64,000 bases of DNA, from IMG/VR virus record IMGVR_UViG_3300048549_001527; one strand, given 5' to 3'. The DNA is from a virus (lineage: Duplodnaviria; Caudoviricetes). The notes under the pieces were generated by a model. It saw nothing but the letters and a program-made list of their open reading frames with translations. It did no database searches and was not told the origin of the DNA. Positions 13,154 through 28,978 of this stretch are shown here, in pieces (positions within the stretch are counted from its first letter, which is position 1; every line of letters begins with the position of its first letter). The position numbers were made by a program, and so were the translations under genes.

Positions 13154-13357
13154 ATGGAATTACGAGATCAAATGATAGCAGCTCTAAAAGACCACGCGCG
13201 CGCTCATATCGAAAAACATCGTATGAATGCAGAAATTTATTTGCGGAACCCAGTAGGAGTTGGCGAGCATTCAGAAGTTATGGAAGAAATTGAAAAGCAG
13301 CTTGAAGAAATGGCTAAGTATGAAGACCAATTGGACATGCTAACTAATTATTTCTAA
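13154..13357 (+). CDS. Hypothetical protein
   Basis: NPVGVGEH motif; GGAG RBS; TAATG coupling to next gene. Confidence 0.7.
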   Translation: MELRDQMIAALKDHARAHIEKHRMNAEIYLRNPVGVGEHSEVMEEIEKQLEEMAKYEDQLDMLTNYF

Positions 13358-14169
13358 TGGAGCCAAAACTAAAAGGATTTCCAAAGTGCTACGTTGTTAA
13401 CCTTGAAGAAAGTGTTGAACGTAGAGACTATATGAATTCCGAGTTTAATAGACTCGGTTTAGATGGAACCGTCCTACAATACAAAAGACTTGAAGACAGC
13501 GATTTAAAGATTGCTGGCGACCGTGACACCTTGGACATACTACCATTAGGTGCTACTACTTCTCATCTCCTGACCATTAAGTGGTGGTATGAAAATACTG
13601 ATGATGAACAAGCCGCATTCTTTGAAGACGACTGTGACTTTAGCACTATTCAACATTGGAACTTTGTTTATGAGGATTATGTTAAGGAGTTTGGCGTATT
13701 GTGGGATGGTCTCCAACTTTGCTGCATGCACGAAGGCTGGGCTGTTATGTATCCACGCCACCGCAACGGCCACGATCATGGACTTCAATGCTATGTAATT
13801 AAGCGCCATTATGCTAAAAAAATTATAGACTATTATTTTGTAAATGATAACACAATACATTTTAAAATGCCGTATGTATTAAAGAGTGAAGATAGTAAAA
13901 AGTATAAACCTACTATAGAAAATGTTGTATATGGATTAGGCACTTTCTATATTCACCCGTTATTTAATCATAACGTACCAAAATTTCCATCAACAGTTCA
14001 CGATCCAAATTCACAACATTTAAAAGATGTTGCTAATCACGCATATGGATATGTTAAACAGTGGTGGGAAACCAAAGGAGGAACTGGTAACCTTAATGAA
14101 TTATTTACTTATGAGTGGTGTTGTCCACCACCTCAAACATTTTCCCAAGTCATGCATATTGATAGGTAG
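13357..14169 (+). CDS. Glycosyltransferase family 25-like
   Basis: YVVNLEESVERR N-terminus, SHL, FFEDD. Confidence 0.75.
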   Translation: MEPKLKGFPKCYVVNLEESVERRDYMNSEFNRLGLDGTVLQYKRLEDSDLKIAGDRDTLDILPLGATTSHLLTIKWWYENTDDEQAAFFEDDCDFSTIQHWNFVYEDYVKEFGVLWDGLQLCCMHEGWAVMYPRHRNGHDHGLQCYVIKRHYAKKIIDYYFVNDNTIHFKMPYVLKSEDSKKYKPTIENVVYGLGTFYIHPLFNHNVPKFPSTVHDPNSQHLKDVANHAYGYVKQWWETKGGTGNLNELFTYEWCCPPPQTFSQVMHIDR

Positions 14170-26917: not shown

Positions 26918-27156
26918 TGGAACCTTGGATTCAAGAAACTCGCAATGGCTTTGAAATGGCTGAAGAAGAAATTAATCGTATTGAAGCTCGGCCTGCCCAA
27001 GGTGAACAGTCTTGCATGGTTCAGTCTGATATGAAACAGTGGGCTCTTAAAAAGGGTCTGTGGCCATCCGAACCATATAAGAATATGATTGTTCTGCACG
27101 CAATTGACCGTGGTTGGTTACAAGAAAACTTTACTGGAATGGAGATCGTAGAATGA
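26917..27156 (+). CDS. Hypothetical early protein
   Basis: 79 aa, TAATG coupling. Confidence 0.7.
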   Translation: MEPWIQETRNGFEMAEEEINRIEARPAQGEQSCMVQSDMKQWALKKGLWPSEPYKNMIVLHAIDRGWLQENFTGMEIVE

Positions 27157-27395
27157 ATAGTGTTGAAAATCCTTACATGGAAGACGTAATTGTAACTGAA
27201 GGATTACCACGCCACGGGTCGCCTCAAGATCGCGGTAGTGCAGATGCTTATTACCATCGTCCTTATGATCCTCATTACTATGTTGGTGATTCTATTACTT
27301 CGGAAAGAGTAGAAAAAGACAATATGACTGTTGGTGAAATTGAGGCTTATAAATACGGTTATGATAATGAAGACGATCGTAAGGATTGGGGATGA
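27153..27395 (+). CDS. Hypothetical early protein
   Basis: HGSPQDRGSADAYYHRPYDPHYY motif; start at ATGA overlap 27153. Confidence 0.75.
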   Translation: MNSVENPYMEDVIVTEGLPRHGSPQDRGSADAYYHRPYDPHYYVGDSITSERVEKDNMTVGEIEAYKYGYDNEDDRKDWG

Positions 27396-27501
27396 TTTAT
27401 TGTATTAACGGCAAACGCTTTGATTGTGTTCTTGACGCCATAGAATACAGAGATATTCTTGATGCTCATTATATTAAAGTGGTATGGAAGCAAATTAACT
27501 A

Positions 27502-27530
27502 TTGACATTCTGTTTAGAATCAGTTATATT
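27502..27530 (+). promoter_or_regulatory. Early promoter, GAATCAG family
   Basis: TTGACA-N9-GAATCAG-t-TATATT; second GAATCAG beside RBS. Confidence 0.85.
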
Positions 27531-27561
27531 AGTTATATCAAATGGAAAAAAGGAATCAGTT

Positions 27562-27693
27562 ATGGAACAGTTTATCACATTAGGCGGCATCATCTTTCTT
27601 AGTGGTGTTATTGGATATATTCTTGGTAACCGCTCTGGTTGGGCAAGCGCTAAAGAAATTTATGGAAAAGATAATCCATATGTAGATGTATAA
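27562..27693 (+). CDS. 43-aa membrane peptide
   Basis: MEQFITLGGIIFLSGVIGYILG...; AAGGA RBS. Confidence 0.65.
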   Translation: MEQFITLGGIIFLSGVIGYILGNRSGWASAKEIYGKDNPYVDV

Positions 27694-27916
27694 GGACTAC
27701 TTTACTCAGCGTCCGTGTAGAGGGAACCGGACCTAGAAGCACTTGGAAGAAATCGACTTACAAATGACGACGGTGCTATCTAACAATCGTATTAGATAGT
27801 AAATATAGCGAAACTAGTAAGTTAGATCCAATTGGTTTCAATCAAACTAGAGCGGCAATGTCAATAAGGCCGTGCGGAGAGATTGGAGATACTAGGGGCG
27901 TTGAGTAAAGTAGTTT
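27694..27916 (+). ncRNA. Candidate structured ncRNA (about 223 nt), family unknown
   Basis: 21-bp end-to-end helix 27694-27714 / 27896-27916 (17 Watson-Crick + 4 GU), internal hairpins, no ORF, ends 4 nt before tRNA-Pro. Confidence 0.7.
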
Positions 27917-27920
27917 ATCA

Positions 27921-27997
27921 CTCGGTGTAGCTTAGCTTGGTAAAGCGCCTGGTTTGGGACCAGGAGACCGTAGGTTCAAATCCTACTTCCGAGACCA
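27921..27997 (+). tRNA. tRNA-Pro(TGG)
   Basis: Anticodon stem CCTGG/CCAGG with loop TTTGGGA, T-arm GTAGG-TTCAAAT-CCTAC, CCA; one mismatch in acceptor stem. Confidence 0.92.
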
Positions 27998-28001
27998 AAG
28001 G

Positions 28002-28177
28002 ATAATGAGGAAAACCCGACTAGCAGGTAAGAACTCATTATACTAAACCCTATATGTGGTTCGAGGCGCGTCGGACATATAGGTCGGTAAAAAGCACTGG
28101 TACCGTAAAAAAACCCAGTCGGTTGTTGCATACGTCAAATGCAAATAAGGGGAGAGGCACTGCAGAAAGCCTCTCCC
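28002..28177 (+). ncRNA. Candidate structured ncRNA with H-type pseudoknot
   Basis: Four hairpins of 6-9 bp plus pseudoknot (CGGTA/TACCG, ACTGG/CCAGT); no ORF. Confidence 0.6.
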
Positions 28178-28204
28178 TCGAAAACTATACAAGGATAAAA
28201 TATT

Positions 28205-28978
28205 ATGTTTTGGAAAAAGAATCCAGTAATTAAATTTCATATACCGGATGATATGAATATAAAGCCATATCACCCTGTACCGGCTGATCGTAGTATTCCG
28301 GAATGGTTTGTAAAGACACCAAAAGGTTGCCCAGCAGGAAAGCTACCAAAAGGCCAAGATCCAAATAAAGATTCTACAATTAAAACATGTATGCCTGTTC
28401 TTGATGCAATGACTGGAGGATATGTTGTAAAATCTCCAGTAGATATGAACATAAGAGCTTGGAAAGAAGATGGTGACGTTCATTTTGGTTGTGAATGGGC
28501 TAAAAGCGGTATGTCAACACATGATTTTATTAATTTTCATGGTACATGGCAATTAGGAAAACACTCATTATTTGATAAAACACCACCAGACGCAGTTGCT
28601 CTAAAACTTATTACTTGGTTTTGTATTGAAACACCACCTGGATATAGTATCTTGGTTAATAGCCATCACAATAACGATCATTTAAAAGATCTAGGAATAG
28701 AATTTATGACTGGTATTATAGACTCAGACAAATATACATTAGAAATTAATTTTCCATTTATATTTACAAATTTTTCTAAAGAAGGTGTATTTGTACCACA
28801 AGGTACTCCACTTTTACAATTATTTCCATTTAAAAGAGAAGCCTGGAACCATGAAATTATTAGCATGATCCCAGGCGACGAGTTTAGTAAAAAACGCCAC
28901 CGCAACATTACTGCATTACAGAGTATGTTTCGCGCTGGCTATCGTAAAAATTTTCGTTCTGTCAAAAAGTTTAAATAA
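28205..28978 (+). CDS. Hypothetical protein (beta-rich, cupin/dUTPase-like suspected)
   Basis: TIKTCMPVLDAMTGGY, ETPPGYS, GIIDSD, GTPLLQLFPFKR. Confidence 0.7.
   Translation: MFWKKNPVIKFHIPDDMNIKPYHPVPADRSIPEWFVKTPKGCPAGKLPKGQDPNKDSTIKTCMPVLDAMTGGYVVKSPVDMNIRAWKEDGDVHFGCEWAKSGMSTHDFINFHGTWQLGKHSLFDKTPPDAVALKLITWFCIETPPGYSILVNSHHNNDHLKDLGIEFMTGIIDSDKYTLEINFPFIFTNFSKEGVFVPQGTPLLQLFPFKREAWNHEIISMIPGDEFSKKRHRNITALQSMFRAGYRKNFRSVKKFK

Follow-up and report, generated by a model that had tools for sequence, protein, structure and literature searches.

The DNA analysed here (the window) is a 64,000-nucleotide (nt) stretch of IMG/VR virus record IMGVR_UViG_3300048549_001527 (Duplodnaviria; Caudoviricetes). 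Its source is a divergent T4-like phage, with topoisomerase II proteins gp39 and gp52 approximately 42% identical to those of cultured relatives. Between a 43-codon open reading frame (ORF) and a tRNA-Pro gene, the window holds a real gene for a folded, strongly conserved non-coding RNA (Table 1). A sequence-only reading of the DNA had described these flanks, and both were correct: the RNA begins right after the TAA stop of the ORF and ends 4 nt short of the tRNA, which was called by ARAGORN and by the Rfam tRNA model (65 bits). The 43-aa gene was also called in the relatives L001, L004, L008 and L010, with an identical 3' end in all four, and was absent from L017. The same succession of RNA and tRNA recurred in L001, L017, L024 and L075.

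Table 1. Features at the RNA locus and in two related contigs (window coordinates unless a contig is named)
Feature	Position	Strand	Description
Sigma-70-type promoter	27502..27530	+	TTGACA, 17 nt, TATATT; 11/12 consensus; best site in 27000-28400
43-codon ORF	27563..27693	+	TAA stop directly abuts RNA start at 27694
RNA gene	27694..27916	+	223 nt; uncatalogued marine T4-like-phage RNA family, model R1
P1 5' arm	27694..27714	+	Pairs with 27896-27916
P2	27715..27742	+	4-bp base, internal loop, 3-bp stem (27721-27723/27732-27734), 8-nt loop 27724-27731
CCGG self-complementary tetranucleotide	27727..27730	+	In P2 loop; proposed symmetric kissing contact
P3 variable expansion arm	27743..27831	+	89 nt, longest class; closed by UUGGA/UCCAA
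P4 conserved core arm	27832..27895	+	Four stacked helices with internal loops
P4 terminal loop AAUGUCAAUAAG	27857..27868	+	12 nt; candidate binding/docking surface
P1 3' arm	27896..27916	+	Reads AAGUAG in the window; tRNA next
tRNA-Pro(UGG)	27921..27997	+	ARAGORN and Rfam tRNA, 65 bits; 4 nt past P1
Second structured RNA	27998..28190	+	After tRNA-Pro; separate from RNA at 27694-27916
Downstream 257-aa protein	28205..28978	+	phrog_7084 / DUF6065 (PF19541 in relatives)
Tandem RNA after family member	L075:418-531	-	114 nt; fold z -6.0
Tandem RNA after family member	L028:5890-5995	-	~95 nt; fold z -4.4

The minimum free energy (MFE) of 27694-27916 was -73.2 kcal/mol, compared with -48.8 ± 4.4 kcal/mol in 200 dinucleotide shuffles (z = -5.59), and none of the 200 shuffles folded as well. 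The minus strand reached a z of only -3.76. The two ends of the RNA pair base for base over 21 base pairs (bp) in the closing helix P1, just as the sequence-only reading had it, with four G-U pairs (G27694-U27916, G27695-U27915, G27709-U27901 and U27712-G27898). Across the family described below, alignment pair 20/214 in P1 was U-G in 88 of 89 members. The conserved G-U pairs and the strand asymmetry indicate that selection acts at the RNA level, on the plus strand; strong covariation added to the support for this early claim.

Rfam 15 at gathering thresholds called only the tRNAs in the window. At E ≤ 10 no family overlapped 27694-27916, in agreement with the sequence-only reading, which had found no family by eye. 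Candidates rejected at this threshold included 6S RNA (RF00013), GOLLD, ROOL, OLE, manA, wcaG, Y RNA, pRNA, tmRNA and the catalogued ribozymes and riboswitches. The element gave no blastn match among 50,697 GenBank phage records, and the tRNA was the only part of the 4-kb neighbourhood to match cultured phages. The downstream 257-aa protein retrieved no related loci from IMG/VR, where the exact P1 arm sequence was also absent. The route that succeeded led from homologues of the downstream protein to the contigs encoding them, and then to a conserved 21-mer. L001, with a downstream protein 87% identical to that of the window, carried a shorter copy of the element before tRNA-Pro, and its closing helix differed by compensatory changes. 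The 21-mer, which lies in the P4 hairpin and is common to the window and L001, occurred exactly in 50 IMG/VR contigs, and the P4 pattern with its loop left free (N12) occurred in 69 IMG/VR viral contigs. A pattern scan of metagenomes gave at least 120 matches. A covariance model, R1, confirmed approximately 90 of the 120 listed, and the chance matches, about a quarter of those listed, were removed with it. Across 185,579 prokaryote species, each represented by a single genome, the P4 pattern had 0 matches. A 17-mer anchor taken from the downstream RNA found 7 loci, 5 of them by chance.

R1 was built from 35 distinct seed sequences and has 155 positions and 44 pairs. The window matched model positions 1-155 of 155 with 131.3 bits (E = 7e-24), partly by construction because it is one of the 35 seeds; independent members found after R1 was built scored 115-177 bits. 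R1 also told true members from chance pattern matches. The family comprised at least 108 distinct elements of 139-224 nt on marine phage and metagenome contigs, with the window copy in the longest class and the L024 member at 195 nt. Neighbouring genes in these contigs were T4-type (topoisomerase II, NrdA). The RNA is a member of a large, uncatalogued marine T4-like-phage family. It may be among the 8,495 unnamed candidates of the 10,006 structured RNAs proposed from IMG/VR by Fremin et al. 2023 (PMC10690425).

The family consensus is a four-way junction of the P1 helix, the P2 hairpin, the variable arm P3 and the conserved arm P4. RNAalifold and explicit pair counts agreed on this architecture, and the window copy had zero unpaired bases at the junction. 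Among 89 distinct sequences, standard pairs occupied 98.2% of cells. Column shuffles gave 90.6%, and sliding the partners by 1-3 columns gave 39-44%. Changes on both sides were seen at 22 pairs, and 0 of 500 shuffles reached any of five measures. P1 (helix 1) was 99.2% paired, and both partners had changed in 11 of its 21 pairs; its length was held at 21-22 bp though its sequence varied. Its inner part, ACGUC/GGCGU, was conserved across the family and the window conformed to it. P4 helices 5-8 were 99-100% paired, with compensatory changes at pairs 27841/27883 and 27847/27877. The 4-bp base of P2 was 94.9% paired and had 3 pairs changed on both sides. A 2-bp RNAalifold register for this base was replaced by the 4-bp register, which accounts for the GUAU/AUAC variant.

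Covariation upheld some of the internal stems listed in the sequence-only reading and set others aside. CGGC/GCCG stood, as part of P4 (27852-27856/27869-27873). AGCAC/GTGCT was displaced by pairing of GCAC with GUGU at the P2 base (27715-27718/27739-27742), and TCCAAT/ATTGGA by pairing of GAUUGG with UCAAUC in P4 (27837-27843/27881-27887). The GCTATCTAA/TTAGATAGT stem falls in the window-specific P3 insert, where the single-sequence fold predicts it and the three known copies are identical. P3 was absent from some members and took the form of a ~14-nt tetraloop hairpin or a ~55-nt branched arm in others. The 89-nt form was found only in the window, L037/L071 and L167, with no substitutions among the copies, and its internal fold in the window is a single-sequence MFE prediction only.

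P4 ends in a hairpin, GCGGC/GCCGU, and positions 27852-27873 of the window were identical to the majority form. When the loop was left free in the search pattern (N12), variation was seen at loop positions 2-3 alone, and the last nine bases, GUCAAUAAG, were invariant. A stretch of the loop, AAUGUCAAUA (27857-27866), was exactly complementary to TATTGACATT (27500-27509), which belongs to the -35 region of the promoter that probably drives the unit. This complementarity is probably a coincidence, since both strands of 64 kb would be expected to contain approximately 0.4 such 10-mer matches, although the hexamer is the -35 consensus.

The P2 loop has a layout of two bases, a 4-nt palindrome and then A. 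Alignment columns 36-39 were self-complementary in 89 of 89 distinct members, with the sequence switching among GGCC, CCGG, GAUC and GUAC, plus 3 wobble variants. The outer pair (columns 36/39) was G-C in 74 members, C-G in 12, U-G in 2 and G-U in 1; the inner pair (columns 37/38) was G-C in 45, A-U in 25, C-G in 14 and U-A in 5. The tetranucleotide was always followed by a purine (A27731 in the window). Adjacent bases are unable to pair within one chain, indicating that this covariation reflects either pairing between two chains or a palindrome in DNA. In the work of Kretsch et al. (PMC12286853), switching of loop tetranucleotides among GGCC, GAUC and AGCU served as evolutionary evidence for two symmetric kissing loops, OLE L9.3 and GOLLD L21a, which were seen by cryo-electron microscopy (cryo-EM). 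By the criterion of that work, a palindrome kept while its sequence switches, the P2 loop qualified. This loop, the invariant P4 loop and membership in a large marine-phage family are the most telling features of the RNA, and all three had escaped the sequence-only reading. The best reading by this analogy is that the RNA would form a homodimer or a larger assembly through the P2 loop.

Two family members were followed by a tandem RNA (L075 and L028). Both tandem RNAs kept the design of P1 plus a palindromic P2 (CCGG) and had a different third domain, which suggests a common chassis with exchangeable cargo. The palindromes differed within each pair, being GGCC and CCGG in L075 and GAUC and CCGG in L028, so that the two RNAs would not cross-pair.

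The promoter upstream of the 43-codon ORF probably drives a unit made up of the small ORF, the RNA, tRNA-Pro and the second RNA, and its sigma-70 type is compatible with early expression of the RNA. L017 and a contig of run X1 lacked the small ORF, and in both the promoter region ran almost directly into the RNA. L024 had its own TTGACA-17-TATATT promoter immediately before P1. No usable antisense promoter was found around the element. Metatranscriptome contigs of three studies were identical to 27720-27899 (X5), 27721-27892 (X3) and 27732-27864 (X4) of the window.

Downstream contexts were compared across the family. A same-strand tRNA lay 1-6 nt past P1 in 18 of 106 distinct contexts and was Asn, Pro, Trp or Thr. 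The sequence-only reading had suggested that RNase P cleavage would free the 3' end of the RNA, and such close spacing from tRNAs of four identities supports the idea for the family at large. An ORF started within 12 nt of P1 in 42 contexts, and other features, including terminator-like hairpins, followed in the remaining 46. GGAG was present in the last 12 nt of the P1 3' arm in 31 of the 42 ORF contexts compared with 4 of the 64 others (Fisher p = 2e-13, relatedness uncorrected). The P1 5' arm co-varied with it, C-G replacing A-U at alignment pair 6/228, indicating that P1 also serves the following gene as its ribosome-binding site and hence that translation of this gene depends on P1 being cut or opened. 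This secondary cis role is irrelevant to the window, where a tRNA follows. Genes after family members shared no function; they included a 68-aa ORF, a MazG-like enzyme and small membrane proteins. An ORF of 64-68 aa starting MRTVHYVG (L031:701-907, L037:4084-4290, L091:731-925 and approximately 35 other loci) followed the RNA in many contigs, with its Shine-Dalgarno sequence inside the P1 3' arm. It had no Pfam or PHROG match. This ORF was dropped as an obligate partner of the RNA since the window has no homologue of it.

One transcription unit probably covers both the RNA at 27694-27916 and the second structured RNA at 27998-28190. The approximately 200 nt past tRNA-Pro were near-invariant in relatives, even where the flanking protein was only 61% identical. 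The second RNA has a hairpin loop ACGUCAA, of which GUCAA is common to the invariant P4 loop, and an invariant GGUACC. In L072 a family member lay immediately downstream of the 3' part of this second RNA, and both RNAs were present but apart in contig L018/L078. The nearest annotated cultured-virus relatives of the 257-aa protein were in haloarchaeal tailed viruses (26-31% identity). Elsewhere in the window, ARAGORN called a tRNA-Asn with the unusual anticodon AUU on the minus strand at 13400-13486, inside a plus-strand ORF (13357-14169); it was rejected as a probable false positive, as the Rfam tRNA model gave no call there.

The slot before tRNA-Pro seems to take different RNA modules. In four relatives (L004:2564-2720, L008:2564-2720, L010:2564-2720 and L009:166-322), the group with a 61% identical downstream protein, the small-ORF stop and tRNA-Pro were separated by a different structured spacer of approximately 155 nt. 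Among its several hairpins were two complete palindromes (CCACUUAAGUGG and UAAAGAUCUUUA), and R1 gave no match to this spacer. The window, L037:3856-4079 and L167:261-484 had a 190-nt interior without substitutions, with different flanking genes; the outer 15 bp of P1 differed at many positions among these three, mostly with compensation. Phages appear to have swapped the 190-nt interior recently. The same P1 was also found with different P2 palindromes (e.g., L053 and L054). Parts of the RNA are shuffled between phages, each part being tightly held.

We consider the chances somewhat better than even that the gene makes a stable RNA of this marine T4-like-phage family, released by RNase P, protected by P1 and able to pair with itself through the CCGG loop. 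The RNA would be transcribed from the 27502-27530 promoter together with the 43-codon ORF, tRNA-Pro and the second RNA. The 3' end of the RNA would be set when RNase P matures the 5' side of the tRNA that begins 4 nt past P1; the 5' end of the RNA could be left by an endonuclease acting at the base of P1 or, in variants without the ORF, could be the transcription start. The long P1 would then protect both ends. Pairing of the P2-loop CCGG between two copies, a symmetric kissing contact of 4 bp, would give a homodimer. A second contact, for example through the invariant P4 loop, might build a larger RNA-only or RNA-protein assembly like those of GOLLD, ROOL, OLE and manA, and the same loop may be presented to a partner. 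To us, a trans-acting role as a scaffold or sequestering particle seems more likely than a role as a cis-regulator. A bolder extension is offered tentatively and is rather less probable than the reading above: P1, as an end-protecting and processable stem, and P2, as a docking loop, would be a reusable chassis with interchangeable cargo domains (P4 here, others in L075 and L028), the palindrome would be an address code by which each RNA, or each phage lineage in a mixed infection, pairs with itself alone, and the dimers would build an early RNA-only assembly, a small counterpart of the GOLLD, ROOL and manA cages.

Several points weigh against a stable, self-pairing RNA. The discrete transcript, its ends and the dimer are predictions here. 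The metatranscriptome contigs are compatible with expression; they are silent on ends, strand and level, and DNA carry-over is possible. A 4-bp kissing contact is weak by itself and the second interface is a guess. All members were gathered through P4 patterns, so the conservation of P4 is partly ascertained, and the N12 pattern frees the loop only. Because the P4 loop is near-invariant, covariation is silent on a partner for it. The column-shuffle control ignores relatedness; the slid-partner control allows for it. Finally, approximately 40% of contexts have an ORF that starts within 12 nt and draws its ribosome-binding site from the 3' arm of P1, and a cis role is a real secondary possibility in such contexts.

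Such a cis element, with P1 acting as an RNase III-type cleavage site or as an insulator between tRNA and mRNA segments and masking the next gene's ribosome-binding site until cleavage or opening of the helix, would explain why P1 stays at 21-22 bp despite its sequence change and why GGAG in its 3' arm, matched in step by the 5' arm, is concentrated in ORF contexts. However, a processing stem has no need of the best-conserved parts, namely P2, P4 and the invariant 12-nt loop; a tRNA follows in the window and 17 other contexts and a terminator-like hairpin in others; the downstream genes have no common function; and a perfect 21-bp helix cannot be a ligand-driven switch. We regard this explanation as unlikely. 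Another reading is a riboswitch or a new self-cleaving ribozyme that frees itself from the transcript. A junction of several helices, with invariant bases numerous both there and in the internal loops, is what a catalytic or ligand-sensing RNA might look like, and self-processing would help in polycistronic transcripts. However, P1 is too long and too stable to switch, no Rfam ribozyme or riboswitch matched at E ≤ 10, no conserved candidate cleavage site was identified, and the downstream genes formed no consistent class (tRNAs in 18 contexts, diverse small ORFs in 42 and others in 46). A catalytic or ligand-sensing RNA is thus very unlikely.

The sequence-only reading had offered a 6S-like RNA polymerase ligand, or a decoy for a protein or anti-defence target, as possible roles. 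Either one would suit the early expression that the strong sigma-70-type promoter makes probable, the invariant P4 loop could bind a protein, and the reverse complement of this loop resembles the -35 region, a likeness rated above as probably coincidental. However, 6S and other protein-sponge families gave no match, and the fold is a four-way junction instead of a rod with a central bubble, which leaves the 6S-like claim unsupported. Nor was a partner found for a decoy: no neighbour protein is conserved in the window, and the 68-aa ORF common elsewhere is absent from it. Neither a polymerase ligand nor a decoy aimed at a defence system or a host protein has more than a small chance of being right. 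The palindromes also raise a reading at the DNA level, in which the element is an inverted repeat like a miniature inverted-repeat transposable element, a recombination site or an insertion scar, and the palindromes are protein or methylase sites; GGCC, CCGG, GATC and GTAC are classic restriction/methylation sites. Cassette movement is suggested by the 190-nt interior that is identical in three contigs with different P1 arms and flanking genes, and four relatives hold a different spacer before tRNA-Pro. However, the conserved G-U pairs would amount to mismatches at the DNA level and in the opposite strand, folding is better for the plus strand, and variable compensated arms around a conserved interior are the opposite of transposon inverted repeats. 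A DNA-binding protein would keep one site, and the stem around the loop is an imperfect inverted repeat, which makes this reading unlikely. The four palindromic 4-mers were neither avoided nor enriched in the 64-kb window. We consider a DNA-level feature highly improbable.

A stable RNA that pairs with itself through P2 would bear on a long-standing puzzle, the structured phage RNAs beside tRNA genes (GOLLD, ROOL, manA, and rnaC and rnaD of T4). In 2025-2026 several such RNAs were shown to form RNA-only dimers and cages. The present family adds a small, abundant and simple case of 140-224 nt, with a four-way junction, self-pairing covariation, an invariant loop suggestive of a partner and natural length variants, and is tractable for cryo-EM, selective 2'-hydroxyl acylation analysed by primer extension (SHAPE) and partner hunts. 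The use of P1 as a ribosome-binding site and the tRNA abutment provide testable links, in the most abundant myophages of the ocean, between the processing of RNA, the supply of tRNAs and the control of translation.

In T4, rnaC and rnaD are co-transcribed and processed with the tRNAs. These small stable RNAs (species 1, 139 nt, and species 2, 119 nt) stand beside tRNA genes in the annotation of NC_000866. The sequence-only reading had drawn a parallel to stable non-tRNA species of T4 tRNA clusters, which holds for the same-strand position by tRNA genes and fails for homology. R1 run with filters off on T4 69500-74500 gave a best score of 10.5 bits and no match at rnaC or rnaD. The folds also differ: rnaC has a tRNA-like T arm in its predicted fold, and both RNAs are without a 21-bp closing helix or a P2-type palindromic loop. 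By these comparisons, rnaC and rnaD are analogues by position, not homologues.

Loop-loop pairing of the kind proposed for P2 is known from unrelated RNAs. In human immunodeficiency virus type 1 (HIV-1), the purine-flanked loop palindrome of the dimerisation initiation site drives homodimerisation, and in phi29, 4-nt loop-loop pairs build the pRNA multimer. Both resemble the P2 loop in mechanism only; their sequences and biology are unrelated, and pRNA (RF00044) gave no match.

The usual non-coding RNAs of T4-like cyanophages are wcaG, manA, glnA, PhotoRC-II and CfrI (PMC9964418). All are Rfam families, and none of them matched the window RNA. One of them, manA (RF01745; T4-like cyanophages and Photobacterium), is a short (<200 nt) structured RNA for which RNA-only decamers and a 60-mer cage have been reported in a 2026 preprint (bioRxiv 10.64898/2026.07.01.735769); the window RNA is likewise small and from a marine T4-like phage. 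However, manA was described as an element of 5' untranslated regions, whereas the present family is mostly found before a tRNA, a small ORF or a terminator; the architecture of manA also differs, and it gave no match at E ≤ 10.

The closest known kind consists of phage RNAs that lie by tRNA genes and assemble protein-free. The large RNAs GOLLD (RF01998) and ROOL (RF03087) are borne by phages or prophages, often beside tRNA genes, and the window RNA is likewise phage-borne beside a tRNA. GOLLD, ROOL and OLE are approximately 580-800 nt or more in length, whereas members of the present family have 139-224 nt, a simple four-way junction and a 21-bp closing helix. The family was found only on marine T4-like phage contigs and gave no match to the Rfam models of those three, and its oligomerisation is predicted, not seen as it was for them. 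The palindrome-switching loop of OLE L9.3 and GOLLD L21a is nevertheless the signature that the family carries in P2.

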